Source: Treponemataceae bacterium
GTDB lineage: Bacteria; Spirochaetota; Spirochaetia; Treponematales; Rectinemataceae
Direction of reading: 5' to 3'
Assembly: GCA_963678065.2 (NCBI GenBank)
Contig: CAXXVZ010000003.1
Span: forward strand, 768,001-832,000
DNA: 64,000 nt
In this document: positions 42,974 through 63,264 of the stretch, piece by piece
Position numbering within the stretch: position 1 is the stretch's first letter
Layout: the number at the start of each line of letters is the position of its first letter
Made by a program: the position numbers and the translations under genes
Notes under the pieces: generated by a model
What the model saw: the letters and a program-made list of their open reading frames with translations, nothing else
Databases searched by the model: none
What the model was told of the DNA's origin: nothing

Positions 42974-43051
42974 AGTGTTGTGGGTTGGGGAAGGAGTGGG
43001 CAGATTGGGTGCATGCAGGGGATAGGAGTTGAGGGTACTAAAGGAGGTGGG

Positions 43052-44476
43052 GTGAGGGGGATTTCTCAGACGCATAGGCGGTATGACGAGTTTTTGTCGA
43101 GGTGGAAGCGGTGTCGAGATGCGTTTGCGGGTTCGGATGCGGTGAAGGAGGCTGGGGAGGTCTACTTGCCGCGGCTTCCGGGGCAGGATCAGGCGGCGTA
43201 TGACGCCTATAGAATGCGGACCGTGTTTTATGGCGCAGCGGGGCATACGCTGACGCTATACATGGGGTTGGCGTTTTCAAAGGCGCCGGTTATTTCGGGG
43301 CTCGTCGCGAATGATCCGCTTCTGGTGGATGCGAATATGGCGGGAAAGCCGTTTTTGGAGATTCTTGAGGATGCGCTCGAGAATGTGATCGGGATGGGCC
43401 GGTACGGGATTCTCGTGGATTATGCGGGGGAGATTCGGGCAGGGATGACGAAGGGGGATGCGGTGCGGGAACGGACGCGGCCGTATCTCGCAGCGTATGG
43501 GGCTCTGGATATAACCTTCTGGCACGAGGGGCGGCGCTCCGGGTATACGGTGCCGGATCATGTGGTGCTGCACGAGTTTTTCGAGTCGGAGGAGGCGTGT
43601 GAGGAGGAACAGTTCAGGGAGCTGATCCTCAGCGCTGAAGGGTATGTCGTGAGACTCTGGCGGAAGGTGAAGAACGAGGATGAGAAGGAAGAGTGGACGG
43701 TAGTGTCGACGGTGAGGCCGCTTCTGGATGACGCGCCGCTAGACCGGATTCCGTTTTTCTTTCTGGATCCGGAGTATGGCTCGTCGGAACCGGCCTGCCC
43801 TCCCCTGTTGGGTTTGGTGGATGTGAATATGTCGCATTACCGGACGATGGCGGATCTGGAGCACGGGAGGTTCTTTTGTGGTTTGCCGACGCCGATCTTT
43901 GCGGGGTTTTCGTTCCAGGAGGGAGAGACAGTGAAGCTTGGCTCGATGCGGGGGATCGCGTCGAGCGCTCCGGACGCAAAGGCGTATTACCTTGAGTTTA
44001 CAGGGGCGGGATTGTCGGCGCTTGAGTCGGCGGCACGTCAGAAGGAGCAGTGGATGTCGCAACTCGGCGGGTCGATGCTGGACTCGGAGAAGACGGGGAT
44101 CGAGGCGGCGGAGACGATACGGATGAAGAGGACGGGGTCGAATGCGACGCTCGCGAGTATGGCGCAGGCGGTGTCGGCGGTGATGACGAAGGTGTTGAAG
44201 TTGATGGTGCGGTGGGCTGGGGGAAATTCTGAGGGGGTGAGCGTGATGCTCTTGACGGAGTATATGCCAGCAGCGATTACGCCTGATGAGTTGTCGGTGT
44301 TGCTTCAGGCGGTGCAATCGGGGGATTTTAGGCGGGTGGATTGGCTTGCTCGGTGCAAGGTGGCGGGGATTCTCGCGCAGGATATGGATGCGGGGGAGAT
44401 TGAGAGGGAGCTTGGGAAAACCCAGAGCTATAGAATTCCCAAGAGGGAGACGGAAGGGGAACGAAAGGTTGCATAG
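43052..44476 (+). CDS. Portal protein (DUF4055-like)
   Basis: WKRCRDAFAG...VKEAGEVYLP...YDAYRMR, PPLLGL..VN..HYR..AD; follows terL; aaggaggt RBS before GTG. Confidence 0.85.
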   Translation: MRGISQTHRRYDEFLSRWKRCRDAFAGSDAVKEAGEVYLPRLPGQDQAAYDAYRMRTVFYGAAGHTLTLYMGLAFSKAPVISGLVANDPLLVDANMAGKPFLEILEDALENVIGMGRYGILVDYAGEIRAGMTKGDAVRERTRPYLAAYGALDITFWHEGRRSGYTVPDHVVLHEFFESEEACEEEQFRELILSAEGYVVRLWRKVKNEDEKEEWTVVSTVRPLLDDAPLDRIPFFFLDPEYGSSEPACPPLLGLVDVNMSHYRTMADLEHGRFFCGLPTPIFAGFSFQEGETVKLGSMRGIASSAPDAKAYYLEFTGAGLSALESAARQKEQWMSQLGGSMLDSEKTGIEAAETIRMKRTGSNATLASMAQAVSAVMTKVLKLMVRWAGGNSEGVSVMLLTEYMPAAITPDELSVLLQAVQSGDFRRVDWLARCKVAGILAQDMDAGEIERELGKTQSYRIPKRETEGERKVA

Positions 44477-44524
44477 GCGGTGAGAGTCCGGGACTAGAAG
44501 GTTTTCCATAGTGAACGGAGGATT

Positions 44525-44965
44525 ATGGGAAGGAAGAAGAAGGAAAATACTGTCTATGTCATGAGGAGGGAGGGATGGAAGGCGCATTTTGAGGTGCATG
44601 TTTCGCCATCAGCACGGACCATGCGGGAGCATGTAGCGGAGATTTATGAACGGTATGGTTTGATTCTTCCTTCCGAGCTGGATAGTACGCTTGGGCTCGT
44701 GTGTCCGATCATGCGGCTGGATAGTATATCAGGGGCCTCGGACGGGCTCTTTGCAGTGATGTTCGTGAATATGGAGAATTGCGGAACCGAAATCCTGTGT
44801 CATGAATGTCTGCATGTGGCTCTGGCTCATGAGCGGCATGTGTTGATGTTCGGGATGGACTATGGTCCCGAATGCGGGGAACACGAGGAACGACTAGCCT
44901 ATTTTCTTGGAGCGGCTATGGCGGGTGTTGTGGCAACATTGCGGGAGAATGGGCACATCGCATAA
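44525..44965 (+). CDS. Hypothetical protein with HExxH motif
   Basis: ILCHECLH and downstream EERLAY; ggagga RBS. Confidence 0.6.
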   Translation: MGRKKKENTVYVMRREGWKAHFEVHVSPSARTMREHVAEIYERYGLILPSELDSTLGLVCPIMRLDSISGASDGLFAVMFVNMENCGTEILCHECLHVALAHERHVLMFGMDYGPECGEHEERLAYFLGAAMAGVVATLRENGHIA

Positions 44966-45263
44966 CAGGCGGCTTTCGATCGATGGGGAAGCAGAATTCT
45001 CTGGATGCGATGGCAGCAGGATGATGAATTACGGAGGAAGAGCGAATGGGGACCCGGACGAGAGATCTCCGATCCTAGAGGAGGTCTCGAGGACGGGTGT
45101 CGGCAGGAGATGGCCGGAAGGTGCGATTCCGGGGCCGGGAGGCGAAGCCTTCCGGATGCAACAGGTGGATGTGGAAACGTTTTTTTTTGAGGAATGCGGG
45201 GAGACCGGAGCGGGTGGAGTCCGTTGACCGGAGACTCGTACGGAGGCCGCGACGGGATCCCCG

Positions 45264-45584
45264 GCCTCCTGTCACCACGTCCGTCGACCAGAGGTCCGGG
45301 CGTGGTGACAGGAGGCTATATAGCTGTGAGCCGAAGCGAATGCGAGCGAGGGTATTGTAAACATTTTTACGTGAGGCAGTGACGCCGTTCGGAGGACGCC
45401 CGTCGGCCGGAGGTCCGGGCGGACGGAGGACGACGGCACTGGCCCTTCTGGAGACGTCCGTCGGCCGGAGGCCCGGACGCCGACAGGAGGGCTTATGAGG
45501 ATTTTCAGGGTTGGAGGTTATGCGAACCGTCCAGAAACGGGGCTCATGTCACAAAAGGCCGCAGGCCGTGGCATGAGCCCCGTT
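45264..45584. repeat. Cluster of REP-like hairpins and a three-copy 25-bp motif
   Basis: cgyccgtcgrccrgaggyccggrcg at 45278, 45397, 45455; 16-bp stem 45264-45316; aaacggggctcatg/catgagccccgttt stem. Confidence 0.75.
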
Positions 45585-45687
45585 TGGGGTCGGTGAGCCC
45601 CAGGCGAGACTGATATGTGAGCCTGGGTTGATTTGTCAGTTGGTCCATGTGCAGCTGGTGAATTATTAGGTGCAGAAAAACGAGTCG

Positions 45688-45909
45688 TGGCACCCCTTCG
45701 TCCGATTTAAAGTGGCGGCATTTCCGCTAATGGTGTTGTATACGCCGGACCGGGCGGATCTTCCCCTACTGATTTTCAAACCATGATCCGCCCGGTCTGG
45801 GGCGAAGCCCGAGCGGAGCTCCCCATAGGAGCGGAGCGAGCGTGTACAACCCTTAGCGGATGTGCCGGGGTTTTACAACATTACTTTAGCTTCGGACGAA
45901 GGGGTGCCA
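45688..45909. repeat. Nested ~220-bp imperfect palindrome containing a degenerate attC-like unit
   Basis: 18-bp perfect IR tggcaccccttcgtccga/tcggacgaaggggtgcca; inner tccgctaa...ttagcgga and gaccgggcggatc/gatccgcccggtc. Confidence 0.75.
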
Positions 45910-46142
45910 TTGGTCGGGGGCCCATGAATTGTAGGACCAAGAATGTAAAACGTCCGGGAGCGTTCCAGGAGAACTCGGGAGCGACGTCCATGCGTCGAGT
46001 GCTGGCACTCGGGTGCTTTGTACAAGGAGCGTACCTGTACTGCGTGTGCGCATGAACGGGCACGATGGCTGCGCTGTATTGTTTATCGTAAACTGAAAGT
46101 CCCCTTTCCGGCAATTTACCATCGGCGCCGACAGTTGCCTGC

Positions 46143-46647
46143 ATGAGGATGTACTGGAAGTTTAACAGCAGCCCTACAATCCTGATTTTCCGGTTATCTG
46201 TATGGACGAGAAGCCCTACCAACTTCTTGGCGAGACGTGAGAGTCGATTCCCATGAAGAGGGGAACCAGCGCCCGACAGGACGGCGAATATATTCGGAAT
46301 GGAACCTGCTGCATCTTTTTGTTCACGGAAGCTTTGACTGGCTGGCGACATACCGATCCATGGGAATATAGAACCAAAGTCGAGTGGGCGAATCAGATCC
46401 GGTATCTGCTTGAAGTTGAATACCATGGAAGCTGGCTGAATAGTGCAGAAATCGAATTGAGTGCCATGAGCAAGCAGTACCTAGATCGAAGGATCGATAC
46501 AATAGATTCTTTGACAACGGGACTTCAGGCTTGGAAAACTAATCGAAATACTATACAGAAGGGTGCCGACTGGCAGTTCACCACACAAGATGCCCGGATC
46601 AAACTCAAGAGACTTTACCCACAGATTAAGATGTGATAAAATACTAG
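46143..46647 (+). pseudogene. IS630-family transposase remnant
   Basis: EDVLEV*QQPY...VICMDEKPYQL, HGSWLNSAEIE, WQFTTQDARIKLKRLYP; internal stop, frameshift and deletion; ends in ctag. Confidence 0.85.
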
Positions 46648-46746
46648 CCGCAACAGAATCATTTCATAGTCCGACCACAAATATTAGAAAGTAATGATCT
46701 TTTTGTTTCGGAGCATGAACATTTCATTATGAAAAAACGCAATTTC

Positions 46747-47859
46747 TTATTGATAAAACACTTGATCCATATTGCTCTTTATAATGCCCAACTTGTCCCA
46801 GACGCCCCAATGTGATCCTTGAGGTCCTTCATAGGAGGCTTTCCAACTTTCGTCAAAAGCCTCGAAATAGTAATAATCCACGTTGTTTTTACGAGCCCAT
46901 GAAATGAAATCACTAAAATATTTGACTGCGTTAGCAAGTGAAGGAATAGCATTCCCAATTGAGTTGCCATCGCTTGGCCAACCAGTCTCCGAAGCGATCA
47001 CAGCCTTCCCTCCTGCAGCAGCAACAATTTGTTTGTGAACGGTATCTATTCTCGATAGGGCTTTTCCAATATTTATGCCTTCCCAGTAGGGATAATAGTT
47101 TACCATGACTACATCAACAGCATTGATTACTGCAGGATGCGACAATAGAACCGAGTAGGTGTCAGCATAGGTCACCGGAATTCCAGGCGCAAGATATTTG
47201 ACACGATTAATGTAATCGATCAGCTGGGTTTCAGTGAGCTCACCACGAAGAAGAACTTCACTCCCTACAATGAGCATATCGGCATCCCCCGCCTTTGCGA
47301 GGGCAATTAGATTTGAAAGTTCCAACTCATTAACATCGCTATCACTGCTGATCCATGCGCCGATAGCGGTCTTAAGTCCTAACTCATGCGCCATCGAACC
47401 GGTTTTTTCGAGACCATTTGTACAGCCAAATGTCCGTATGTTTGTGGTGTAGGGGGCGATTATTTTTAGTCGAGACTGGATCTGCTTTATGCTCAGTGAC
47501 GAACCCTTGTTAGGATCCTGACCATCAACGTAGGGGCTGAAATCAAATCCATATGCCTTGTAAGTGACTGGTGTAGGTGCCAAGGTCGTAGTTGTTGTTG
47601 CTGTCATGGTTGTTGTCGTGGTGACAGAGGGTAAAGTAGTTGTCGTCGTCGTGGTGACAGAAGGTAAGGTGGTTGTTGTTGTCGTGGTGACAGAAGGTAA
47701 GGTAGTTGTTGTCGTTGTGGTGACAGAAGGTAAGGTAGTTGTTGTCGTTGTGGTGACAGAAGGTAAGGTAGTTGTTGTCGTCGAGTCGGTGATATTTTTA
47801 CATGCAACGGATGAAAAAGCTGTTAGCACTACTAGAAACCATATATGGTTAATTTTCAA
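46747..47859 (-). CDS. Lipoprotein with Thr-rich stalk and GH17-like beta-1,3-glucanase domain
   Basis: SSVAC lipobox, FSPY, VGSEVLLR, NYYPYWEG, SETGWPS, YFEAFDE.WK. Confidence 0.85.
   Translation of the reverse strand: MKINHIWFLVVLTAFSSVACKNITDSTTTTTLPSVTTTTTTTLPSVTTTTTTTLPSVTTTTTTTLPSVTTTTTTTLPSVTTTTTMTATTTTTLAPTPVTYKAYGFDFSPYVDGQDPNKGSSLSIKQIQSRLKIIAPYTTNIRTFGCTNGLEKTGSMAHELGLKTAIGAWISSDSDVNELELSNLIALAKAGDADMLIVGSEVLLRGELTETQLIDYINRVKYLAPGIPVTYADTYSVLLSHPAVINAVDVVMVNYYPYWEGINIGKALSRIDTVHKQIVAAAGGKAVIASETGWPSDGNSIGNAIPSLANAVKYFSDFISWARKNNVDYYYFEAFDESWKASYEGPQGSHWGVWDKLGIIKSNMDQVFYQ
47609..47782 (-). repeat. 33-bp coding tandem repeat, about 5 copies (TTTTTTTLPSV)
   Basis: ggtgacagaaggtaaggtagttgttgtcgttgt units with synonymous variation. 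Confidence 0.93.
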
Positions 47860-48118
47860 TTTCCTCTTCCTACGGGCTATGTTTGTCCAATACGCAAATT
47901 CCTATCGCTCTTCTATATCTATTGTCATTTGAACTCACACAAGGGAGCATACTCAATTCTCCAGATGACCCAGTCGCTGAAACACATTATGACTCTTTCA
48001 GCTTCGCCAAGTACTTTTATTTTCGTGGATGATACAAACTTCGAGACTACCTTGGTTTCACAGCTCGCCAACAGGACAGAAACACTTCCCGAGGAATCGA
48101 AAGCTTCTGGCTGCGAGG

Positions 48119-50104
48119 TTACTTCTTATGCATTTTCTCCAACATGGCATCCACCTGCTTTAATATTGCCTGAGCTCCAGTACTCCGCGGATCATTGGCC
48201 GGCATAAGTTTAAGGGAAAGCATTATTTCTTCCTTACTATGTTCCAAATACTTGTCTTCGATGCATGTCATCAACGCTTGCATAAGCTTAGGACCCTTTT
48301 CGAGCTTAGCGGCGGCATGTGTTGCCAGATAGTAAGCCGATCCAAGGTTAAGATGAGCCTGGGGATCGTTTGCATTTGCATCTACGCTCTTCTTCAGTTC
48401 TGGCAACAATCCCTGAAAAGTAGTCCATGCCTGCTCATACTTACCCTCGTTAATTAATATAAGGCCATCTCGTATCTTCTTTGAGTCTGGATCCTGCGCG
48501 GGGGGCACCTTCACACCTTCGGGTACATCTTTTAAGAGGGTGGCTAAACGGGTCTTCTCCGTAGCGAGGTCAGAGATCTCTTTGGAGTATTTGTTTTCCA
48601 CATCGATAGAATGTGCTTTATCTAGCACAGACTGTATAGTTTTCAAAACATACTCAAGATCGGATTTTTGCATGGCGAAGGCGTATCTGACTTCAGGGGT
48701 TGTCAAAGCCGCGACATTCATGGAAGCAAGATTAAGTAGATTACTAGCAATAGCGAGCAACGGATATGGAAGCCATTTTACGGTGCCTTTCACCTCACCT
48801 GTGACAATCTCTCCCTGTGAGGCTGACGGATCGATGCTCAGGACAAGCAGCCATCGGAGTGTTATGCCTGTTCTCCAGTTCTGAACTTGCTCTTTCTCCT
48901 TGGTCGAGAGGACCTTGCCATCATTGATGCCTTTTTCAATATCTATTTTTTGCATCGTTGCCTCAGAGAGGGCGTTTGGCAATGGTACATCAATTGCCAA
49001 AGATCCAAGATCAGGAGCACCGATCACCGCATTCAGCGACTCTACAAGACGTTTGCCCCACAAGCCGGCACGCTCCATAAAATACACCATTTCCTGGACA
49101 CATAGTTCTTTGGACAGCTTCGGATAGGCTTCGCCATACAGGGATGCCATCTGAAGCGATGAAGAACACGATGCGTATGCGATGCTCGCCGCTAGTAAGG
49201 CAGCACGTAGACTGTCCTGCCCCGTCAAGGCATTCTTAACGGTAAGCTTCGTATAGGCGTCTTCGTATCGCTCATTCAGGATTGCGTCGAGGCCAAGCGC
49301 ATATGTCTCCTTCTCCGGCCTTAATTGCGCTGCAGGGACCTGTTGGCGCGTTTCCGTGACGACGACATCCACGAAATCCTGGAGACAGAGGTAGGATATA
49401 GCTGCAATTGATGTGTCAGACTTTGGAAGGCTCAATACATGGAGATCCTTATGAATGTCTGGCCTCTTCCTTGGGAGTAGAAACCTCGCATAGATAGCCG
49501 CGAGTTGTGGATTCTCCTTTTCGTGAATGACCGTTATCTCAACTCGCGCTTCTTTCATCATCTCTTTCGTCCTATAAGCCACATTGTCCTTGAGAAAGAG
49601 AATGGCGCGCGGGTATATACCATCTCTCGTAGGTAGAAGTTCGACGGTCTTGACAAATTGTGCATAGAATGGTTGCACCTTGGCTATGGTCGGCGTGCAC
49701 TCCAAGTATCGGAACATCGCTAGAGCCATGCCTTTATCGTCTTCCTTCCAGCCATCGAGAGTGAATCTCCCAAGGGTAAACTTAGGGTGTTCTTTAACGA
49801 AGGTCTCAAGTTCTTTGTAGGAAGAGACGAATTGGGCAGCCAAACGTAAACCGCAGAGCGAGGCAAAACGGAGGTCCAGGTTGCTGGGTTCAGCGTCAGA
49901 TGCCTGCATAAGCAAACGACATGCTTTTATCTCCCCTTCCGAACCTGAGCTACGAATCTTGAGGTTTTCGCTAATTTCCAGGTTTTGATCAATAATGGCC
50001 AGTGCCCCTCTGACAATGGTTTCGGTTGGCGTTCCTGACTGTGCGTGGCCGAAGATTAGGAAAGGAACAAGGTAACAGATGCAGAATAGTAAAAATGCCT
50101 TCAT
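48119..50104 (-). CDS. Secreted helical/TPR-like protein, cassette-borne
   Basis: Signal peptide MKAFLLFC..., TPR-like DPQAHLNLGSAYY; starts after GTTCGGC and an aggag RBS. Confidence 0.7.
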   Translation of the reverse strand: MKAFLLFCICYLVPFLIFGHAQSGTPTETIVRGALAIIDQNLEISENLKIRSSGSEGEIKACRLLMQASDAEPSNLDLRFASLCGLRLAAQFVSSYKELETFVKEHPKFTLGRFTLDGWKEDDKGMALAMFRYLECTPTIAKVQPFYAQFVKTVELLPTRDGIYPRAILFLKDNVAYRTKEMMKEARVEITVIHEKENPQLAAIYARFLLPRKRPDIHKDLHVLSLPKSDTSIAAISYLCLQDFVDVVVTETRQQVPAAQLRPEKETYALGLDAILNERYEDAYTKLTVKNALTGQDSLRAALLAASIAYASCSSSLQMASLYGEAYPKLSKELCVQEMVYFMERAGLWGKRLVESLNAVIGAPDLGSLAIDVPLPNALSEATMQKIDIEKGINDGKVLSTKEKEQVQNWRTGITLRWLLVLSIDPSASQGEIVTGEVKGTVKWLPYPLLAIASNLLNLASMNVAALTTPEVRYAFAMQKSDLEYVLKTIQSVLDKAHSIDVENKYSKEISDLATEKTRLATLLKDVPEGVKVPPAQDPDSKKIRDGLILINEGKYEQAWTTFQGLLPELKKSVDANANDPQAHLNLGSAYYLATHAAAKLEKGPKLMQALMTCIEDKYLEHSKEEIMLSLKLMPANDPRSTGAQAILKQVDAMLEKMHKK

Positions 50105-50124
50105 GGTTTCTCTCCTTTCCTGTT

Positions 50125-50194
50125 GCCGAACGTCACAAATCAGCGGACCTGAGCCTGTTGCGGGCTCGAGGTCCGCTGATTTGTGACGTTCGGC
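50125..50194 (-). other. attC-like recombination site (70 bp)
   Basis: GCCGAAC...GTTCGGC ends, 26-bp stem, overlaps the upstream TAG, followed by RBS and ATG. Confidence 0.75.
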
Positions 50195-51192
50195 TATTGA
50201 TTCTCGTTCTTCCACGATTCGTATCTCTCGAAGGTATCAGGATCGATCGTACCGTTGAGATTTCGATCACCGAGCGTGAATGCGGCCTTGATCGTCTTGC
50301 CAATCAGAACCTTCCCTTGCTTGTCGATTCTGACTTGGCTCTTTTTCGCGAAGACAACGTCCTGTCCAGCGGCTTGCACAAAGATGGCAGAGTCCTGCGC
50401 AAGTCGTCCCTTCCATATCTGATTCTTAATCTGATTTTTAGTCTGGAACTCGATCACATCTTGGGCGTCCTTGGTTTTCGCCTTGGTAAGTTCATTGACA
50501 ATGTCGTCAATGATTTTCACAGTTTCGTCCGAAGGTTTGTTAATGGGTAATTTGGAAAAACGTTTGTATCGCCCAAAGCTCTGGCAGCCCCAGATAATTT
50601 GCCAACCGCCAAGAATGGCAAAGAAGCTGTGGCCACCATCAGATACAGAGTTCGTAATCGTTATGATGATGTTCCACAACCCTACAATGATGAGAGCAAC
50701 TCCATAGACAATCATCCCGAACGGTGTTGGGGAAGTGACTATCCAGACACCTTCGACGAGTAGGAATATCCCGATTAACCCGAGAATCACGTTGATTGGG
50801 TTATCTCCCATTCCTCTGAAACCCATTGCAATCGCAATGAGACCGAAAACTATGCTCCCGATCCCCGACGGTCTGAGGATCTTCCTTATTAGCCTGTAGT
50901 TTGAAACTCTTTGCAGATCGTCTAATCGCGTGTCTGTGTGCTCCGAGCCCAGTTTTTGGCTTAGTGACTCTATGATGTGCTCTGCTGCAATCCGTGCGTC
51001 CTCAAGCTGCCTATCGTGGGTTCTCAGTTTCTCCTCTATGCAGTCTCCTTTGCCTCTTTGTAGCAAGAGGGATCGTGCATAGTCGATTGCTTCAGTCGTG
51101 TAGTCTTCCGGTTTGTCGAGCATGCACAAGAGTTTCTCGTCATTGCACCTCTCCAATCGCTCTCTGATGTCTGCCTGTAGTGTCATGTTCAT
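50194..51192 (-). CDS. Membrane protein (about 4 TM helices), gene cassette
   Basis: Hydrophobic core; flanked by GTTCGGC (51210-51204) and its exact complement GCCGAAC (50194-50188). Confidence 0.75.
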   Translation of the reverse strand: MNMTLQADIRERLERCNDEKLLCMLDKPEDYTTEAIDYARSLLLQRGKGDCIEEKLRTHDRQLEDARIAAEHIIESLSQKLGSEHTDTRLDDLQRVSNYRLIRKILRPSGIGSIVFGLIAIAMGFRGMGDNPINVILGLIGIFLLVEGVWIVTSPTPFGMIVYGVALIIVGLWNIIITITNSVSDGGHSFFAILGGWQIIWGCQSFGRYKRFSKLPINKPSDETVKIIDDIVNELTKAKTKDAQDVIEFQTKNQIKNQIWKGRLAQDSAIFVQAAGQDVVFAKKSQVRIDKQGKVLIGKTIKAAFTLGDRNLNGTIDPDTFERYESWKNENQ

Positions 51193-51203
51193 CCCCCTCG
51201 ATT

Positions 51204-51222
51204 GCCGAACATACGTTTATCC
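51204..51222 (-). other. Right half of an attC site
   Basis: ggataaacgtat-GTTCGGC just before RBS gaggggg and ATG 51192; left half replaced by IS110 remnant. Confidence 0.55.
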
Positions 51223-51242
51223 TTCTTCTATGAGAACATCCG

Positions 51243-51716
51243 TTAAGCGGCAGTTTGAAGGATTTTTTCGAGTTCTCGCACCTTTCGGCGGTAGATGCGG
51301 GCGTCGAAATAGCGATAGACCTCCTGGTTTTTCAGCATGAAGTACATCGCGACGAAGGTCTTGCGGACGATGGCGGCCTGTACTTTGTTCCTCCGCTTCG
51401 ACGAATGTCGGGCGCGAAAACGCTCAAAACCCTCGTTCCCACGAACGACGTGCTCGAGCCCCTGCAGGATGAATCGATACGAGGTCCTGCGTCCTCGGCG
51501 GTTCAGCCCTCCTTCACGCAGCCTCTTTCCTGACGCATCGACCTTCTCCACGCTCGAGAGATAGGACGTCATGTTCTTCACGGAGGAAGGAAAGCGCTCG
51601 ATCCTCACGATATCCGACATGAATACGACGGCCCCAAGGATGCTTATGCCCGAGATACTGATCAAAAGTTCCGTTTCCCGCTGAAATCGGCGCACCCCTA
51701 TGTCTGACCTGTACTG
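51243..51716 (-). pseudogene. IS110-family transposase C-terminal remnant
   Basis: LLISISGISILGA...DI..IERF...SY......DASG...G...RRG...AIVRK pattern; RuvC (DEDD) domain missing. Confidence 0.75.
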
Positions 51717-53645
51717 GTCGAGTAGACATGTCATCCTCAAAGCGTTGTACAACGAGTAAGAGAATGCACACCCCTCATAGAACCGAACTTGCGGATTTCA
51801 AGCATTCGGCTCTTCGACGATATTCACCACATGCGCTCTTGAGAGAATACAGGTAATGGTAGATTCGTGGTTTCGGCAGCTCGTGGCGTTCTAGGTAGAT
51901 GGAAAAGGCAACCCAGTCCATGCAATTCTTCTGGCTCCGCCTATTTATCCACTTGAACACCATTCGCCGTACCCTATGTAAAAGTTTATAATACTTTGAG
52001 AGTTTCTGCTTATCCCATAGTAGCGAAAATGACCCAGAAGTTTGGCCTTGAGTATTGTCCACCATTCCTGTATTGGTACTCGGTTTCTGATATTCTTCAA
52101 CCATTGGTTCATTTCCTTCAGCTTCACAGCCAGTTTCTTGCGATCAGTCTTGTGGCCGAGCTCGAAGAATCCGCTTCGCGTTTTATCCATGTAATGGGTA
52201 AAATCGAGGAAATTGAATGTCTCCGGCTTCGTACCATTCCCCTTCGCGTCCCATCCGGCGAATCGTCCGAACTCAATAATCCGCGTCTTCTCTTTTGTCA
52301 GCTCCAGATTGAATTTATCAAGCCGTCCCATGAGCGCTTTGAGTATCTTTTCCGCTTCGTCCTTGTACTGTACGCAGATTACAAAGTCATCAGCATACCA
52401 CGGCCATTTCCACTACCCCACGGCATCGAGGCTTCACTACGCGCTTAAGCCCAATAGGTCGAGCACATAATGAAGATATACGTTGGCGAGTATGGGGGAG
52501 ACGATCCCACCTTGGGGAGTTCCCGTAACACTCTCGTGAAACGTTCCTTCCTCCATCTAGCCGTTGTGTAGAAAGCGGGCGATCAGGTGCAGCAGGTTCG
52601 GGTCGCTTATCCTGTGCTCCAGGAACTTCAGTACCCAGGAATGCAAAACGTTGTCGAAAAATCCCTTGATGTCGCAGTCAATCACATGATTGACCGGTTT
52701 CGTCATGATGATCTTGTCGACACGTTCCACTGCCTGGTGACAGCTCCTCTTGGGGCGAAATCCATAGGAGCAGTCGAGAAAGTTGGCTTCGTATACCGCT
52801 TCCAGTATCCGGGCTATCCCTGTTTGGACTATCTTGTCCTCTGTCGAGGGGATACCAAGCGGCTGCAGTTTCTTGTTGGCCTTGGGGTGTATTGTATACT
52901 CCTCGCACCGGCTGTGGCTTATAGGCCTGACTTTTCTATCTCACCACGAGATTCATCAAGTTTTCGTCGAGGGTTCGTCCGTGTTCTTCTATTCCGATCC
53001 CGTCGATTCCCGCCGCCTTTCCTTCCTTGAGTATCTCAGAGCACTCTCTCAGATTCGCTTCATTGAGCAAATAGGCCGCGTTGTTGATCTTTTCCCCGTT
53101 TCCTCTCCTTGTGATCTCGGCCATGAGGGTCAGTTTCGTTTGTATGGTAGCCTCGTCTCCTGTACGATCTATGTCCCTCTGCATACCGCCGCCGATCCCT
53201 TCGAGTGAACTGTAGTCCTCGCGGGCCGTTACCCCGCTACACCTCTACTACGAATCAGTCCGACTCCCGATGGTCATCTCCGCGTCCTCGCCTTTCCAGC
53301 TTGTCAGCGGATATCCCCATATTTCGGGAACCCAGCAGGGCCCCCAAGTTCCTGTGTTTTCCGTTCGTGGCCAGACCGCGGCCTTCGACACCGATGAAGC
53401 GATGCAGCGCTCGCCCTGACGTGCCGTACCGTGTTGCCTTCCGGCTATTGAACGCCGTCGGCCTCCATGACTTGTCCATTTCGGAGCTCAATACCTTCGC
53501 TCGCGTTGCGGTCTAGGCAATTCCTTCAAGCGGCTTTATCGCTTCCCGTTACCGGTAACGATGCGCTGTCAGTGGCAGGTGGTCGGCTCGACCTTGCCTG
53601 CGCCGGACTCTAGCCGGCAAGAAAACACAAGCTTTCTTGGCGCAC
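51717..53645 (-). mobile_element. Full-length group II intron with decayed RT (class E-like)
   Basis: 5' GTGCGCCAAG at 53645; domain V gagccgaatgcttgaaatccgcaagttcggttc; domain VI ending ctactcgac at 51717. Confidence 0.88.
51830..53184 (-). pseudogene. ltrA: Group II intron reverse transcriptase/maturase with stops and frameshifts
   Basis: KAAGIDG, PLGIP, SYGFRP, DIKGFFD, GTPQGG, YADDF (52398-52384), FNFLDFTH, GHFRYYG; no endonuclease domain seen. Confidence 0.9.
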
Positions 53646-53659
53646 TCAATAGTGGACAA

Positions 53660-53704
53660 ATGGGGCGCAGCGGAATCCCCGTCCAGTGTAGCGCGTTGTT
53701 AATC
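53660..53704 (-). other. Left half of an attC site, truncated 14 bp before the intron 5' end
   Basis: GATTAAC-aacgcgctacactggacggggattccgctgcgccccat, 5 nt after the cassette gene stop. Confidence 0.65.
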
Positions 53705-53709
53705 GATAC

Positions 53710-54570
53710 TCATGTCTGTTTGTCCACGTGGCCACTTTCCATAGTGTCCGGATTCTTGACGACAACCGCACCTGCTCCAGACGGAATCCATGCACTCAGA
53801 CGCATTTCCTCATCCTGTGTCAACGGGAAAGCTGTTAGCGTCGCATGTGACCCCCATGCTTGAAGGATTGCCTTAAGATACCAGACCTGCGGCTTTGTCA
53901 ATGCGCTTACGAATTCGACTTGAACGGCCTTGGGATACATCTGCCAAACGAGATTGCGGAAGACCTCCGCGTTGTCAGGCAAACAGTTAGCCCAGATCTG
54001 TTCTGTTCTTTGCGATCGCTCGCGAAAGAGACACGATCCCCATTCGTCGGGAATAGCTGAGAGAAGCTCGTCTATATCTGAGTCAGGTGAATACGCAGTC
54101 AAACACCAAAAAGGCCGTTTCTGAGTGATTTCAGATTCAATCTTTGTGCTATTGATCTTCGTTCTCACTCGCGCAAGGACGTCATCTGGTGTTGGATGCA
54201 CCAACGAAAGAGCCCGCGCAACATACTCAAGGGGAGTTCCACCTTCGTCTCCCAAGGAATCAGATGTCAGATAGAAGTTCCCAAGGTTCGCTTGAGCTAC
54301 ACTGTTCCAGATATTCAGTCTTATCGCCTCCCGACCAAGGGAGATCGCAGTCACCAAATCCTGTTTGAGCCATGCCTGTGCCGCTGCAGTTGCTCTTTGT
54401 CCTGACTCTCTACGAGCAGCAGCGTGTTCCTCAACCGTTTCTATTCGATTTGAGCGACAATGAGGACAGGCATATAGACCCGGTGCCATTAACCTGTGAC
54501 AATCGATACATCGGTCAAGGCCTCTGAGGAACATGTATCCAAATGATTTGCGTTGTGTTGATTCTTCCAT
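53710..54570 (-). CDS. Zn-ribbon plus TPR-like protein, gene cassette
   Basis: CIDC...CPHC, AIRLN...AQANLG; ATG follows GTTAGTT and a ggag RBS. Confidence 0.7.
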   Translation of the reverse strand: MEESTQRKSFGYMFLRGLDRCIDCHRLMAPGLYACPHCRSNRIETVEEHAAARRESGQRATAAAQAWLKQDLVTAISLGREAIRLNIWNSVAQANLGNFYLTSDSLGDEGGTPLEYVARALSLVHPTPDDVLARVRTKINSTKIESEITQKRPFWCLTAYSPDSDIDELLSAIPDEWGSCLFRERSQRTEQIWANCLPDNAEVFRNLVWQMYPKAVQVEFVSALTKPQVWYLKAILQAWGSHATLTAFPLTQDEEMRLSAWIPSGAGAVVVKNPDTMESGHVDKQT

Positions 54571-54581
54571 ATTCTGTCTCC

Positions 54582-54643
54582 AACTAACGTCTGCGGCATC
54601 AGCGGCAGGGCGAAGCGCTGTCCGTCTGGATGCTGTTGTAGAC
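54582..54643 (-). other. attC site (canonical architecture, R'' one base short)
   Basis: gtcta(a)caacaGCATCCAGacggacagcgcttcgccctgccgCTGATGCcgcagacGTTAGTT; L''/L' boxes with extrahelical bases. Confidence 0.85.
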
Positions 54644-54706
54644 ATCCCGACACCAACACAACAAGCAGCACGGGCTCTCTACGCCTGGCAGCTCGGAGCG
54701 CATCCG

Positions 54707-55275
54707 TCACTGGGCAGGCACGAAGCCCATCACGGACATGACCTCTGCGCTCAGCAGATGATCGCTTCCGCTGGGATACACGTATCTACCATCCTTCACG
54801 CAAGCGTCGAAGCCGAGATCGACTTCTCTGCACATGGCGTGGAACTCGTCTATCGTCCTCAAGACGCCCAGCGTCGTGCAACCAACGTAGCCTTCTACTG
54901 CAGCGCGCACTAGCGAATCATGAATGTAGCTGAGAGTTGCGACGTGGTCTGACCATACTGCGACCACGTACGGTCTGAACCCCAACGCACTGGTGTTCTG
55001 GCGCGTGATGAAGTCCTTCTCAACTCCGGTGGCCGAATCATTCACAAGGTGCTCTCCAGACCTGACCCAGCTGTCAAGGTCTCCCCAGTTCGACGAGTCA
55101 ATTGGGGACACACGCAGCTCAAAGAAGGCTGTTCGGGCCTGGGCGTGCAGGTGTCATTCTCCGGACAGACGGTCTCCAGGATGGACTGGCAGAAGTACCT
55201 CTGCGGATTGAACTGCGCCCGGAATGTGGAGTCAAAGACGAACACTACTCCACCTTCGCGATCGACAGTATTCAT
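54707..55275 (-). pseudogene. Cassette gene of unknown function, probably frameshifted (ORFs 55275-55042 and 55111-54707)
   Basis: Two overlapping minus ORFs fill the interval between two attC sites. Confidence 0.45.
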
Positions 55276-55318
55276 GCGCACACCCCCTTCTGCGTAGATG
55301 GACGTCTGTTGCCGGTGT

Positions 55319-55425
55319 GCCCAACATTGGCTTGACCTTTAAACCCCGTGCTTGAGCGAAGCGATGGCTTGTCGTGGTTCTTGCGTAATCTTCTCGCAAG
55401 AACCACGACAAAGGGGCTTTATAAG
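55319..55425 (-). other. Long attC site whose left end is replaced by a group II intron 3' end
   Basis: cttataaagcccc pairs with ggggtttaaagg; internal ttgtcgtggttcttgcg stem; ends aagccaat-GTTGGGC. Confidence 0.75.
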
Positions 55426-55850
55426 GTCGAGTAGGCCAGGGAAATTTCACCCCCAGCCCCTCACAGAACCGTACGTGATAGGCTCCCATCATACGGCTCT
55501 TTATATTCAACCAGTACCATACCAGCTTAGTTCCCAGTGCTCGAAAAGCTGCGGCAATCGTCTGGCTTCATTTGCGATAAACGCGAAGGCCATGTACCAA
55601 CTCCGCTTGAGTTTCCTGTATCGATTCTTTGCCCACTTAACTAAAATCGCATTGAACATCTCACAGATGCCGACCAACGCAGTTCATCGAGACTTCCCAT
55701 AATAGTTTAGCCATCTCCTCTGCGATCGGAGCGATCACTTCATTATGACTAAGCAATACAACTATGCCTTTATTGCTGCATAAGGTTTTTGCTTTATCAC
55801 CGTTAGGAGGGTGGTAATTCTTTTGAGGACAAAAATTAGATGTGCGCAAC
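55426..55850 (-). mobile_element. Second group II intron, 3' fragment (class D-like)
   Basis: Domain V gagccgtatgatgggagcctatcacgtacggttc, domain VI ...ccctggcctactcgac; maturase remnant WLNYYG...LVKWAKNRYRKL...PQLFEHW; left boundary approximate. Confidence 0.85.
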
Positions 55851-56011
55851 TTCCCTCGCCGCAACAGAGTGGAAGCATGACAACGCATCCTTACTCATCG
55901 ACGCGGGGAACACCTCCACAAGTATGACTCTATTTTATTCTTGTTTTGCATGCTGTCAACTAAGAATCTTCTCAATAACAAGAGGCTGTCTAGGAAATGA
56001 TTCCCGGACAT

Positions 56012-56101
56012 GAAAGGGCGCGATTGGCTGTTCACTACTTAGGATGCTCGGATCAAACTCAAGAGACTTTATCCACAGATTAGCATGTAACAGAGTACAA
56101 G
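56012..56101 (+). pseudogene. Second IS630 3'-end remnant
   Basis: gatgctcggatcaaactcaagagactttatccacagatta is nearly identical to the first remnant around 46590-46630. Confidence 0.85.
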
Positions 56102-56270
56102 CTACAAATATTATTTAAAATTTGGGGTCTTCTCAAACCAAAAGCCTCATCGTACACCTACATCTGAGTATTATGAAGTTATTGCGGTTTTTCATGCTTT
56201 GACCGCGGGTATCGGGTATGGAGACCGCGGATAGTTAGCTGGCGGAAAGGAAATCTGGGAGAGGAAAGGA

Positions 56271-57011
56271 GTGACGAGAGGGATGACGTTGAAGGAGTTG
56301 GTGAGCGCCGCGAGGGTGGAGATTGAGAAGGGAGAGGGGGCGGATCGGGGGGTGCTTGCGGAGCTTGTGGGGAAGATGGAGCCGCAGGTTGTGAGGGATC
56401 AGGCGGCGCTCGCGCGGCTTGAGAAGAGGTCGCTGGTGGTGGGGGATCGGAGTCCTGAGGAGGTGGCGAAGGTTTTTCAGGATTTTGAGGATTTGAAGAA
56501 TGCAGTTGAGGAGCTGCGGGCGGCTTCGGAGGAGAAGGATCGGAGGCTTGAGAAGGTGGCGAAGGAGCGGGCGGTTTCGGAGAAGGGGCTCGCTGATGCG
56601 CTTGCGGGGGAGAAGTCGGCGGTGGCGCGGTTAGTCTTGGACAATGGGCTGACGGCGGAGTTGTTGCGGGCGAATGTGAAGGCTTCGTTGATTCCGGCGG
56701 CGAAGGCGTTGATTCGGGAGAAGGGGATTCTGTCGATTGAGTCGGAGGGGGATATCAGGCGGGCGGTGGCAACGCTGAAGCGGGAGGGGAAAGAATCGAG
56801 GGTGGAGCTTGCGGCCTATATCACGGAGTTTGCGGCTTCGGATGAGGGGAAGGAGTTTGTTCAAGCTCCGGCGAATTCGGGAGGTGGCGCGAGTGAGGCG
56901 AGGGGTGCGGGGGCTGTGCAGGGGAAGGTGATGCGGGAGGAGGTTTTCGCGGCGCTGCCACCGAAGGAGAAGGCCCGGTTTATGGCGGAGAAGGGGGCGC
57001 TGGTGGCGTAG
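56271..57011 (+). CDS. Capsid scaffold protein
   Basis: Coiled-coil charged sequence, FVQAPANSGGGA, terminal FAALPPKEKARFM; directly upstream of capsid. Confidence 0.75.
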   Translation: MTRGMTLKELVSAARVEIEKGEGADRGVLAELVGKMEPQVVRDQAALARLEKRSLVVGDRSPEEVAKVFQDFEDLKNAVEELRAASEEKDRRLEKVAKERAVSEKGLADALAGEKSAVARLVLDNGLTAELLRANVKASLIPAAKALIREKGILSIESEGDIRRAVATLKREGKESRVELAAYITEFAASDEGKEFVQAPANSGGGASEARGAGAVQGKVMREEVFAALPPKEKARFMAEKGALVA

Positions 57012-57127
57012 GTCAGGGATTCGAGAGTGGTTGGGTGGTGGTGCGGGGCGGGCCTGTCGGGAGACAGTCCCCTACCCTCGCGTTCTTTTTTTGAAGGGCC
57101 ACTGTCGGGAGACAGAGGGAGTTCGGG

Positions 57128-58276
57128 GTGGGAAATGTGTTTACGGCTCTGATGCCGGTGCTGTTTTCGGCGGCTCAGGAGATTTCCTGCGAGCCGTTCG
57201 GGATCATCAGTGCGATTTCGTCAAATTTTGACGATAAGCAGGTGGCGAAGGGCGATGTGGTGAAGGTGCCGCTCGCGTCGGGCGGGGTACCTGAGGATTT
57301 TGTGCCGGCGAATGTGCCGCCGCAGGGGGATTCGGATACTGCGGGTGAGGTGGATGTTCAGATTACGGCTTCGAAGAAGCGGTCCTGGCATCTGACGGGA
57401 GAGCAGCGGCGCTCGCTCGAGAATGCGGGGACGGACAAGGAGTGGCTCCGGCAGAAGGTTATGCAGGAGATGCGGGCGCTCCGGAATGCCGCGGAGGCGG
57501 ACTGTGGGCTCGCGATTGTGGAGGGTGCGTCGCGGGCGTTCGGGGTGGCGGGGACGACGCCGTTTGCATCGAGTCTTGATGACCTCATCGGGGTGCGGAA
57601 GGTTTTGAAGGACAATGGGGCTCCGATGGCGGACTTGCAGTTTGTCTGCGATACGGCGGCTGAGGCGAACCTTTTAAAGTTGGCGACGATTCAGCAGGCG
57701 TACGCGGCGGGTTCCGATGAGGAGCGCCGGCTGGGGCGGATCGGGCGACAGTTCGGTTTTGCGATTTCGAATTCGGCCCAGATCGGGCTGCACACAAAAG
57801 GGACAGGCACTACCTACCTCATCAATGCGACGACGCCGATGGCGGTCGGGGACTGTGAAACGGTTCTCTCCGCGGCTGGGGGCGGGTCGGGGACGATTCT
57901 TGCAGGCGATGTGGTGACGTTCGCGGCGGATGCGGTGAACAAGTATGTGGTGAATGAGGGTGTGTCGGCGATCGCGCAACGGCTCGCGATCGGGCGGCCG
58001 GGCGTGCGAAAGGCGATTGCGGTTTCGAATGCAATCACGGTGGGGGCTTCGTATACGCCGAGTCTCGCGTTTGAGCGCGGGGCTGTGGTGGGGATCATGC
58101 GGCCTCCGGTGATGCCGGCGAATCCGACGATGAGTCAGACGATGATCTGCGACGCAAAGGGGATGACGTATCTGCTGATCGAGATTGCGCAGTACGGGCA
58201 GGTGTCCTGGGAGTTGCACCTGGCCTGGGGTTTCCGGGTGATTCAGTCGGAGCATGTGGCGCTCCTTCTCGGGTAG
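57128..58276 (+). CDS. Major capsid protein (P22 coat-protein-like)
   Basis: 382 aa, ILAGDVVTFA, LAFERGA, terminal LAWG...EHVALLLG. Confidence 0.85.
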   Translation: MGNVFTALMPVLFSAAQEISCEPFGIISAISSNFDDKQVAKGDVVKVPLASGGVPEDFVPANVPPQGDSDTAGEVDVQITASKKRSWHLTGEQRRSLENAGTDKEWLRQKVMQEMRALRNAAEADCGLAIVEGASRAFGVAGTTPFASSLDDLIGVRKVLKDNGAPMADLQFVCDTAAEANLLKLATIQQAYAAGSDEERRLGRIGRQFGFAISNSAQIGLHTKGTGTTYLINATTPMAVGDCETVLSAAGGGSGTILAGDVVTFAADAVNKYVVNEGVSAIAQRLAIGRPGVRKAIAVSNAITVGASYTPSLAFERGAVVGIMRPPVMPANPTMSQTMICDAKGMTYLLIEIAQYGQVSWELHLAWGFRVIQSEHVALLLG

Positions 58277-58308
58277 CCGTTTGTCTTAACGGTGACGGGG
58301 TATGTTGC

Positions 58309-58812
58309 GTGAGTCTCGTGGTGGAAGACGGGTCGGGGGTTGCGGGGGCCGAGAGCTATGCGTCGGTGGCGCGGTTTATCGGGTACCGGAGTGTCTCGGG
58401 GCTGTCGATTCCAACGGAGACGAGGGAAGAGAATCTGGAATGGGCGCTGATCGGGGGGACTGCGTATCTCAACTTCCGGTATGCCTGGCTGTGGCCGGGG
58501 CGGCGATGGTCGAGAGAGCAGGGCTTAGCCTGGCCGCGAGCGGGAGCCTGCGACAAGGAGGGAGTTGCGCTTGTAGGACTTCCGCTCGGGGTTGTGCACG
58601 CGGCGATGGAGGCGGCTCTGGTGGATCTGAATCAGCCGGGGATTCTGTGGGATTCGCTGAACGGGAACGGGACGGTTCGGGCGGAGTCCGAGGGTGGGGT
58701 CAGGAAGGAGTACGAACGGGGGATTCCGGGTCTGCGTTCGTTTCCGGCGATTCATGCTCAGGTGGCGGGTTTCCTCGTGGCTGAGTCGGGTATCCGGGTG
58801 GAGCGCGGGTGA
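58309..58812 (+). CDS. Head-tail connector (DnaT-like phage family)
   Basis: LVVEDGSGVAGAESYASV and QGLAWPR motifs. Confidence 0.8.
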   Translation: MSLVVEDGSGVAGAESYASVARFIGYRSVSGLSIPTETREENLEWALIGGTAYLNFRYAWLWPGRRWSREQGLAWPRAGACDKEGVALVGLPLGVVHAAMEAALVDLNQPGILWDSLNGNGTVRAESEGGVRKEYERGIPGLRSFPAIHAQVAGFLVAESGIRVERG

Positions 58813-59096
58813 AACGACGGGATCTGCTCGCGCTCTATGCGCCGGTGGATGGGTTGAGCGTGGAGCAGGTGCGGACTCGTTCGTATGTGTTTGTGAAGTC
58901 GGTGGCGGGGACTGTGCAGCCTGCGCCGGGGAAGCTGGGAGCGGAGGGGCGGGGTTTTGTGGTGTTCTGTGATCCGGATGCGGCGATCGGCGAGGATTCG
59001 GCCTTTGGGTATGGCGGGGCGCTTTATCGCGTCGGGGCTTTGGCGGTGTGGAAGAAGCATGTGCGGGTGGCGCTCGTTCGTGTGGAAGGGGGATGA
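58809..59096 (+). CDS. Probable head-closure protein
   Basis: Size, position, GTVQP motif, GTGA coupling. Confidence 0.5.
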   Translation: MKRRDLLALYAPVDGLSVEQVRTRSYVFVKSVAGTVQPAPGKLGAEGRGFVVFCDPDAAIGEDSAFGYGGALYRVGALAVWKKHVRVALVRVEGG

Positions 59097-59471
59097 GTGG
59101 TGAATGTAAAGGCGTGGTTGTTGCCGCGGCTTGTACATGATGCGGGGATTTTGGGGGTGTTGGGGAGTCCGGGGAAGCTGGTGTACGGGGCGCCGACGAC
59201 GCCGCCGGCCCTCCCCTTTCTCGCATACAGGGAGTCGGGGAATCGGGATTCGCACTTTTCGATCGAGGGGGTTTGGGGGGTGGAGTCGACGTTTTCGTTC
59301 GCTCTGTACGACAGGGTAAGTACGTCGGCGCTCGAGGAGGCGCTGGATCGGGCGATGCGGGGGATGGGATTCTACCGAATGCTTGGAAGGGATGTTCCGA
59401 ATGGGCATGGGGAGTGGGTGCAGAGGAGCGTAGGGTACAGGAGGGTGCTCAGTGACAGGGAGGTTGCGTGA
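59097..59471 (+). CDS. Probable tail-terminator-like protein
   Basis: Position and the pattern LPFLAYRE...DRAMRGMGFYR. Confidence 0.55.
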   Translation: MVNVKAWLLPRLVHDAGILGVLGSPGKLVYGAPTTPPALPFLAYRESGNRDSHFSIEGVWGVESTFSFALYDRVSTSALEEALDRAMRGMGFYRMLGRDVPNGHGEWVQRSVGYRRVLSDREVA

Positions 59472-59656
59472 GGGGATTTTGTTTGGAAGAGCAGGATGCG
59501 CAAGATGCACAGGACTCGCAGGATGCACAGGATGTGCGGGAGAAGCGTGAGGGGGAAGGGGTCAGGATTCGGATGATCGACGAAGAGAGTCCACTTGCAG
59601 CGCTGCGGGCTGTGCGGGAGATCGCTCGGGAGTTGGCGTTGCGGGCTGGCATGTAG
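59468..59656 (+). CDS. 62-aa ORF, possible tape-measure C-terminal vestige
   Basis: Directly upstream of Dit; ends ESPLAALRAVREIARELAL; contains QDA 9-bp repeats. Confidence 0.4.
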   Translation: MRGFCLEEQDAQDAQDSQDAQDVREKREGEGVRIRMIDEESPLAALRAVREIARELALRAGM

Positions 59657-59668
59657 GTCGGATTCGGG

Positions 59669-60553
59669 ATGCGGGTCTGGTTTGAGAGTGCTTCGGGGGA
59701 GGTGCTGGATTTTTCGGCGCATCCGTTCAGGATCACCGAGGTGACGGGGGTGGATCGGGCGGCTGTGGCGGTGGAGGGGTCTCGTGCGCCGGCTCAGGAT
59801 GGGTTTTCGGTGGTGGGGTCGTGTTTTGAGGCGCGGACGGTGGGGGTTTCGGGGGTGCTGACGCCCTACCCGGCTGATGCGGAGTCTGTGGATGCGGTGC
59901 GGCGGCGGATGGTGCGAGCGCTGTGTCCGAAGTCAGGATGCGGGCGGTTCGTGGTGGAGTCGGGCCAGAAGGGGTTCGTAATCCAGGCGATGGCGGTGGA
60001 TTCACCGTTTTTTCCGCAGGTTGATGTCAGGCGGCCGCATCAGCGGTTTGTGCTGCGGTTTGTGTGTCCGAATCCGTACTGGCTGGATCTCGCGGAAACG
60101 GAAGTGGTGATTCTGTACTTCGGGGTGCAAACGGAGTTTTCCGAGGCGGGGATCGCGTTCGGGGCTGGCGGGATCGAGATTGCGCGGTACGAGTGGACCG
60201 AAGGCAGACGGATTGAGGTACTGAATCCTGGGGATGTGGTCGCGCCGATGGTGATTGTGTTCTCGGGGCCGGTCTTGAATCCGACGGTACACAACCGGAC
60301 GACGGGGGAGTTTATCCAGATTCTGAAGGATGTGCGCGCGTGCGAGGTGGTGCGGATCGATTCGGGGTTTGGGCGGAAGACGGTTCGGATTGAGTCGGGG
60401 GGCTGTTCGATGAGCGGGATGCAGTTCCTGAATCTCGATTCCTCGTTTCTGTCGCTCGTGCCGGGGATGAATGCGATCGAGTTTGTGGACGAGGCGCCGG
60501 GGGAAGGGTCGGTGGCCCGGATTGTGTTCCGGGCGCGGTATGCGGGGGTGTGA
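59669..60553 (+). CDS. Distal tail protein (siphovirus Dit-like)
   Basis: APAQDG...FEARTV, FVCPNPYW, NPGDV..P, NP...N.TTGE, LVPGMN. Confidence 0.85.
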   Translation: MRVWFESASGEVLDFSAHPFRITEVTGVDRAAVAVEGSRAPAQDGFSVVGSCFEARTVGVSGVLTPYPADAESVDAVRRRMVRALCPKSGCGRFVVESGQKGFVIQAMAVDSPFFPQVDVRRPHQRFVLRFVCPNPYWLDLAETEVVILYFGVQTEFSEAGIAFGAGGIEIARYEWTEGRRIEVLNPGDVVAPMVIVFSGPVLNPTVHNRTTGEFIQILKDVRACEVVRIDSGFGRKTVRIESGGCSMSGMQFLNLDSSFLSLVPGMNAIEFVDEAPGEGSVARIVFRARYAGV

Positions 60554-60559
60554 ATCGGG

Positions 60560-62065: not shown

Positions 62066-62097
62066 AGGAAGAGAGTACGGAGGCTCTGGCTGTTCGC

Positions 62098-63255: not shown

Positions 63256-63264
63256 AGGGGGGCG

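Follow-up and report, generated by a model that had tools for sequence, protein, structure and literature searches.

Does a row of gene cassettes lodged among the head genes of a phage-like element still take part in gene exchange, or has it become ordinary cargo? The question is raised by a 64,000-nt stretch of DNA of a Treponemataceae bacterium (the window; contig CAXXVZ010000003.1, positions 768,001–832,000), in which four minus-strand genes between the portal and scaffold genes follow integron-type recombination cores. Positions without a prefix refer to the window; C3, C4 and C5 are contigs of the same genome (G000, 5.27 Mb). An initial annotation had read the region as an integron cassette array without integrase, captured by a prophage and able to ferry or receive cassettes. 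The cassette/attC architecture is real, because cores stand before the genes and covariance models match the sites; it has no neighbouring intI, and every site is damaged. The array is probably a decayed cluster from the cassette pool of the host, carried as a block into the cargo slot of a 73-kb phage-like element.

Architecture of the array and state of its attC sites

The GTT cores are GTTGGGC (55325), GTTAGTT (54588) and GTTCGGC (51210 and 50131), all on the minus strand. As initially annotated, each stands 18–50 nt before an ATG (55275, 54570, 51192 and 50104). A core upstream of four genes out of four is well above chance, because a relaxed core was found within 60 nt upstream of only 65 of 649 long host open reading frames (ORFs).

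The attC-like sites, all on the minus strand, were scored with two home-made covariance models. The host model was trained on 14 host attC sites, all outside the window, and the general model on 13 sites from other genomes, chosen by our own heuristic (3 of the 19 Gemmatirosa sites were used). A functional attC was taken to have intact R'' and R' cores, an L box with an extrahelical base, and an unpaired spacer; such imperfections are described as setting the selectivity for the bottom strand (PMC8946536).

Site A (55319–55425) is a long attC of the host family, 76–81% identical to nine host copies. It matches the host model over 55319–55441 with 62.4 bits (E 3.6e-14), but R'' and the first part of L'' are gone, their place being taken by the 3' end of a group II intron at 55426. 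In the whole window the general model gave ten matches. Site D (50125–50194) came first, with 26.4 bits on one strand and 25.5 bits on the other; site B (54582–54643; 16.6 bits, E 0.15), next in rank, is borderline and stands above the seven others. Site B is a short attC of canonical type with extrahelical bases in the L box and an R'' core that is one base short; searches for its relatives returned chance matches only. Site D is an attC-like perfect palindrome with both R cores intact. Its 26-bp arms have neither an extrahelical base nor an unpaired spacer, and it scores similarly on both strands. It is one of five perfect inverted repeats of at least 22 bp in the genome, and the sole one with AAC/GTT core ends; no relatives were found in plasmids, viral contigs or 300 other genomes of the order, and it may have arisen by 'perfection' of a hairpin. 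Two partial sites complete the array. At 53660–53704, the left arm of a short attC was read from the sequence (R'', an L''-like box and a terminal hairpin), with no match on the general model. Site C (51204–51224) is the L'-R' right arm of a host-type attC, directly behind the end of an IS110-family insertion sequence (IS), a junction shared with an IS110 of the host array. The full set of canonical features was present in none of the five whole or half sites.

The three sites originally proposed as attC were thus recovered by the models, one of them at the borderline. The proposal that three genes end at a complementary AAC heptamer fared less well. Only the heptamer at 50188–50194 is fully complementary; the one at 53698–53704 agrees in five of seven positions and belongs to a left arm alone, and at 54637–54643 the core is one base short and the AAC that had been chosen is out of register with the L box, the extrahelical bases of which were correctly noted. 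Full or partial hairpins are present, with the defects of sites A and D given above.

Clusters of attC sites without an integron integrase (CALINs) are defined by at least two clustered attC sites and no nearby intI (Cury et al. 2016). Of our home-made models, the general one gives 26 bits for site D and a borderline 16.6 bits for site B, and the host one 62 bits for site A. The sole match to the integron integrase profile TIGR02249 above its cut-off (265 bits) lies about 720 kb away, and the best score inside the window was at most 27.9 bits, so that the array is a CALIN, as had been suggested. It is not a complete integron: neither intI nor an attI-like site stands at its head.

The host integron and further arrays

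The search for intI asked for in the initial annotation yielded a single intact host gene at C3:97196–98137 (450.6 bits, no stops, catalytic motifs present), which could act on the window array in trans. Its cassettes lie downstream on the same strand. The IntI frame (C3:96954–98138) has about 80 extra N-terminal residues before the profile match. Sites A and C belong to the attC family of this integron, and we take the long host attC to be the published Treponema family. An IS110 at C3:113908–115460 splits a host-array attC at the same point as the junction of site C. This junction is seen in both genome copies, with short inverted ends visible, the window copy being a fragment. Intron 3' ends adjoin host-type attC arms in the main array as they do at site A.

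The likely attI, a core of 19 nt in the interval from intI to the first cassette, has exactly two copies in the genome, neither of them in the portal-scaffold slot; the second (C3:866944) lies inside the same element as the window array. It heads a second array (C3:847500–866950, loci L011–L012) on the minus strand, with whole attC sites and no intI beside it. Other arrays were found at C3:2.36 Mb and on C5. A different attC family of 141–143 nt, with at least six copies on the minus strand, occurs at C5:756–901 kb in a large array without intI. In addition, a 2.6-kb unit encoding a tyrosine recombinase and a probable IS91-type transposase is present three times (C3:851758–854390, 864303–866935 and 2358746–2361491); it behaves as a cassette, because each copy starts at a GTT core and ends at an attC-like arm. 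A similar start of this unit was seen in genome G005.

Genes and insertions in the cargo slot

The four genes had all been called cassette genes. Gene 1 (54707–55275) is frameshifted near 55141–55147; intact homologues have 190–205 aa. Gene 2 (53710–54570, 286 aa) is a candidate zinc-ribbon/TPR-like protein, from an atlas lead, and gene 3 (50194–51192) encodes a 332-aa membrane protein with 20 homologues besides itself (43–67% identity), none with a named function, and no plasmid match. The fourth, a 661-aa TPR-like gene with weak matches (48119–50104), follows site D. It is at most a putative cassette, because neither sequence reading nor the general model found an attC at its end. A single-sequence structure model of its product had a predicted local distance difference test score (pLDDT) of 41 and was unusable. 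Genes 1–3 matched no Pfam, PHROG or PADLOC family; a defence role is unsupported, and the atlas search for the cassette genes gave TPR-like leads only.

All of these genes and the insertions between them are on the minus strand. About 2.5 kb of the array, which had passed without mention in the initial annotation, is a dead group II intron (51717–53645; RF02005, RF00029) inside an IS110-family remnant. The C-terminal part of the IS110 (51228–51716; PF02371) has 69% protein identity to the host-array copy. The intron lies outside any attC, and its reverse transcriptase has stops and frameshifts. A second remnant, the 3' part of an RmInt1-like group II intron (55426–55713; RF00029, 63 bits), is co-oriented with the cassettes and ends within the L'' box of site A; over 61 aa its identity to the protein of the intact host intron is 51%. 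To the left lies a minus-strand GH17 glycoside hydrolase lipoprotein-like gene (46747–47859; PF00332) with Thr-rich 33-nt repeats, which is not bounded as a cassette.

The array is flanked on both sides by IS630-like remnants on the plus strand. The left one is a 3' half (46134–46653; 83–90% identical to C3:249832–250478) and the right one a 3' end (56012–56107; 78% identical to 46558–46653 and 87% to C3:250390–250478). At the left edge of the cargo, positions 45960–46079 are an 83% copy of a small-ORF region in the lysis module of the element (C3:832216–832335), and 45100–45910 holds GC-rich hairpins and short repeats with no copies elsewhere in the genome.

The carrier element

The element extends for about 73 kb between an attL core (38176–38224, plus strand) within tRNA-Gly(TCC) (38147–38218) and an identical 49-nt attR (C3:879122–879170). 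Its phage genes in the window are on the plus strand. The integrase (38329–39579; PF00589, phrog_1) is a phage-type tyrosine recombinase and not an IntI (TIGR02249 at most 27.9 bits). The ORF at 39877–40689 has an integrase N-terminal SAM-like domain (PF13495) and no catalytic domain; it covers TIGR02249 positions 2–84 only, and as a remnant of intI it is unproven. Profile matches identified terS-like, terL and portal genes (41071–44476), in the same order as in relatives, and scaffold, major head, adaptor, small neck ORFs, Dit, BNR-repeat, Gp37-like and holin-like genes (56271–63612), so portal, scaffold and major head genes flank the island as first described.

The genes expected of a long-tailed temperate phage (integrase, attL/attR, terminase, portal and capsid) were found, except for those of the tail tube and tape measure. 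Only 197 bp separate a terminator-like ORF from Dit, and no tube or tape-measure gene lies between them; a divergent gene elsewhere is possible. TIGR01760 and PF10145 had no match in the genome, while positive controls were matched. The 124-aa ORF at 59097, which may be a tail terminator rather than a tube protein, matched phrog_78 (terminator) with E 0.014 in three of five members. Its structure model (pLDDT 64.5) gave weak similarities, among unrelated rows, to a gene transfer agent (GTA) virion chain (Z 5.0) and a Mu terminator/trunk chain (Z 4.3), and no Foldseek match.

Beyond the lysis genes the element carries a defence-like cluster, IS elements, the second array, dinB/dnaE2 and a replication-initiator-like ORF. 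An excisionase-like ORF is also present, and IS insertions are many. The defence-like cargo at C3:835567–847152 comprises a DUF499 ATPase, a DUF1156 methylase, a PLD-SNF2 helicase (Hma/restriction-like), FRG and HEC-01B-like genes.

The cargo slot in relatives and support for the assembly

The region from portal to scaffold (44477–56270, 11.8 kb) has a lower GC content and no GC skew. Relatives of the element were studied at 12 loci with 69–79% capsid identity (L020 and L025 are the same DNA). In all four elements with linked portal and scaffold genes the two are far apart: 11,794 bp in the window, and 10,157, 8,794 and 5,643 bp in the others. The cargo of the relatives, named from translations, is unrelated: restriction-modification; NACHT-like genes with dinB/dnaE2; nuclease and lipoprotein genes. 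No host-type attC was found in 11 relative loci, and no convincing match to the general model in seven (the highest score was 16.1 bits, over 36 AT-rich nt). The nearest cultured phage, with a 54-kb genome and 55.6% capsid identity, has 544 bp between the two genes. Because large unrelated cargo is found in four of four linked elements, the gap is a family-wide cargo site and not one specific for the capture of integron cassettes. A DUF72-like/dinB/dnaE2 module occurs in the slot of L021 (4059–8984) and near the right end of the window's element (C3:867400–872398).

The region from adaptor to Dit is equally compact, in tube-less order, in every relative long enough to judge (L020/L025, L021, L022, L027, L034, L035 and L036). 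In L023, L026, L027, L028 and L036 about 9 kb of transporter or metabolic genes precede the scaffold and no portal is visible; two capsid modules but a single portal were seen in one genome. Scaffold-to-lysis modules amid host-like transport genes, with neighbours shared between L026 and L036, hint at domestication. A metagenome-assembled genome of the Treponemataceae contains close relatives of the element. Elsewhere the scaffold had no match in 60 related genomes and the capsid distant matches only, in 2 of 400 genomes of the phylum; single-protein scans of genome contigs for portal and for capsid gave nothing. The GC skew did not define a replichore.

Misassembly had been named as a possible refutation of the array. 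Contigs of two runs from two studies, one of which may be the source sample, tile 41000–60500, the main pieces without differences. Single contigs bridge the portal to 45797, 47752–55402 and 55376–60500; none crosses the whole island. Two odd single-contig joins below the threshold for a joint, 44717/60473 (X1, depth 4) and 57024/54817 (X5, depth 14), may be deletion variants or chimeras.

An RmInt1-like intron lineage inside attC sites

Two full intron copies of 1,919 nt, 95% alike, are present in the genome (C3:118121–120039 and C5:773494–775412). The intact intron protein (409 aa) shows 55.8% protein and 68% DNA identity to a Sinorhizobium meliloti ltrA intron, the record of which is presumably of RmInt1 type. 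Among 69 genomes of the family, ten had intron matches. In 10 of 11 counted 5' junctions the intron starts exactly 7 nt after the AAC core (G000, five; G024 and G535, two each; G513, one; four genomes in three genera); these junctions are kin and not independent events. The exception is a 76%-identical intron outside attC. Two further junctions, a 20-nt remnant at C4:118170 and one in G019, lie one base further and were not counted. The lineage also occurs at the 7-nt position in G028, and in G535 two adjacent attC sites each contain a copy of about 710 nt that lacks the ORF.

At the 3' side, the intron is followed by the arm from L' to GTT in 10 of 13 cases. The window remnant, one main-array copy and one G005 copy resume 5 nt later, which may reflect either a sister lineage or a small loss. 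Matches of viral contigs to the junction pattern were due to chance (0 of 19 matched the intron).

The introns are inserted inside L'' on the sense (top) strand, co-oriented with the cassettes, and not on the bottom strand at R'' as group IIC-attC introns are. Exon-binding site 2 (EBS2), assigned by analogy with the S. meliloti intron, pairs with the R'' core at four of five bases in five of six copies and at three plus a wobble in the sixth. Pairing of EBS1, in a loop, is uneven (3.5 to 6 of 7), and therefore structure or protein may also guide the intron. The lineage is likely an RmInt1-like (class D) intron that homes to attC.

Origin and fate of the array

Host origin is supported by sites A and C, which are of the host attC family, by parasites of the same kinds and by IS630-like remnants on both sides. 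On the reading that we favour, host IntI would have built the array elsewhere, in the main integron or in the element's second array, which starts at a likely attI copy. Parasites that target attC, the class D intron and IS110, would then have split sites A and C, and deletions together with IS630-bounded or recombinational movement would have left a fragment of the array in the slot. Since the hairpins are broken, excision of cassettes by IntI would be poor or nil, and the genes would therefore act as ordinary fixed cargo; the array is probably frozen. Several observations weigh against a decayed host cluster. The short types to which sites B, D and the half site belong differ from those of the main array, and site D still has both R cores. 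No DNA copies of the four array genes were found elsewhere in the genome; because no cassette is shared, host origin is argued from site families and common parasites. A composite transposon is conjectural, because both IS630 pieces are truncated. Long decay is a poor fit to the apparently intact integrase, att sites and head genes, and both covariance models are small, with rough E-values.

The intact integrase, the identical 49-nt att sites and the excisionase-like and replication-initiator-like ORFs speak for another reading, in which the element is a live shuttle: a mobile tube-less particle or helper-dependent satellite with its own attI and arrays, which borrows host IntI and moves cassettes between hosts. 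The second array (C3:847–867 kb), with whole attC sites behind the likely attI copy, fits such a role, and the tube-less order common to every relative long enough to judge suggests design rather than decay; tail-less GTA particles exist (PMC12946183). We nevertheless hold this to be unlikely. Every window site is damaged, the element has 73 kb compared with 54 kb in the nearest cultured phages with this capsid type, IS insertions are many, no relative has attC in the slot and no qualifying joint was found in public contigs. Of the suggestion that the element could ferry or receive cassettes, the availability of host IntI in trans stands; for the window array both activities are doubtful because of the damaged sites, the lack of an attI in the slot and a 73-kb carrier without tube or tape measure. 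No attC closes the gene that follows the last attC, which is what target DNA would look like. On this third reading the cassettes would have been inserted one by one into the cargo slot, host IntI having acted in trans on a secondary GTT site upstream of a non-cassette gene (the 661-aa gene), and would have decayed in place. Such insertion is one of four proposed origins of CALINs (PMC4889954), and host IntI is intact. At least three insertions at non-attI sites would be needed, and no empty allele was found; the empty site is unreadable because its upstream end is cut by the intron remnant and the IS630 end. We give this route about as little credence as the shuttle. It is very improbable that the island is a misassembly or that its hairpins represent terminators or repeats due to chance. 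Site D is a perfect palindrome unique among the 301 genomes searched, site B has an E of only 0.15, and no single public contig spans the island; set against this are the 62 bits of site A, the fit of site C to the host attC family and the tiling of 41000–60500 by contigs from two studies with identical main pieces.

A more far-reaching combination may be considered, although we regard it as doubtful. The window's element would be one member of a spirochaete family with tube-less particles and an open cargo slot in the head operon. This member would have become a satellite integron that lacks an integrase gene, has two arrays and an attI copy, and depends on host IntI in trans. Its cassettes would be locked by a class D intron that reads the conserved R'' core via EBS2 and enters L'' on the sense strand, a second, base-pair-programmed way of homing to attC that is distinct from that of the IIC-attC introns.

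Comparison with known systems

Like the tail-less GTA-like FpGTA as described (PMC12946183), the element has a compact head gene set without long-tail genes. Unlike FpGTA it has an integrase, att sites and large cargo. If particles are made, the tube-less family with its standing cargo slot in the head module would provide accessory genes of spirochaetes with a vehicle of a kind that has been little described.

With group IIC-attC introns (PMC3001079, PMC4424553, PMC7923331) the host lineage shares a fixed insertion point of a group II intron in attC. The former insert at R'' into the bottom strand and are oriented against the cassettes, whereas the RmInt1-like introns enter the sense strand 7 nt after AAC. 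The IIB introns of Sonbol and Siam lie just downstream of attC and those of the host lineage inside it. The attC-linked introns found in PMC7923331, PMC4424553 and PMC3001079 are IIC-attC introns on the bottom strand, a single IIC case on the top strand, and IIB introns that lie next to attC. A class D lineage inside attC was found nowhere in the literature searched; other papers could mention non-IIC attC introns. The intact copies described here make possible a direct test of how a class D intron finds sites that are defined by structure and not by sequence. A second question is whether a split of attC in the DNA, with splicing from the RNA, fixes cassettes in place while the array escapes silencing. 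The IS110 junctions resemble those of the IS1111-attC group (PMC11187229), to which these copies may belong: an IS110/IS1111-family element is likewise inserted at a constant position within attC, which in this genome immediately precedes L'.

The host integron resembles the Treponema-type 'inverted' chromosomal integron (PMC4889954, PMC3607928), intI being co-oriented with the cassettes as in the Treponema integron (PMC4889954). Unlike that system, the window array lies 720 kb away and has no platform. The initial annotation held that phage-embedded arrays seem uncommon; Qi et al. (2023, PMC9892861) reported 17 CALINs among 10,705 phage genomes, which agrees with this and means that they have already been described. 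The closest parallel is the cryptic Shewanella prophage M16-3 (PMC9892861), in which a cluster of attC sites without adjacent intI also lies amid virion genes of an integrated, possibly inactive phage and a second array of the same element has its own attI. M16-3 possesses its own intI and a full tail, whereas for the window's element intI is on the host chromosome only, no tube or tape measure was found and the sites are damaged. The window array is one more decayed example of a described class, the CALINs in prophages.

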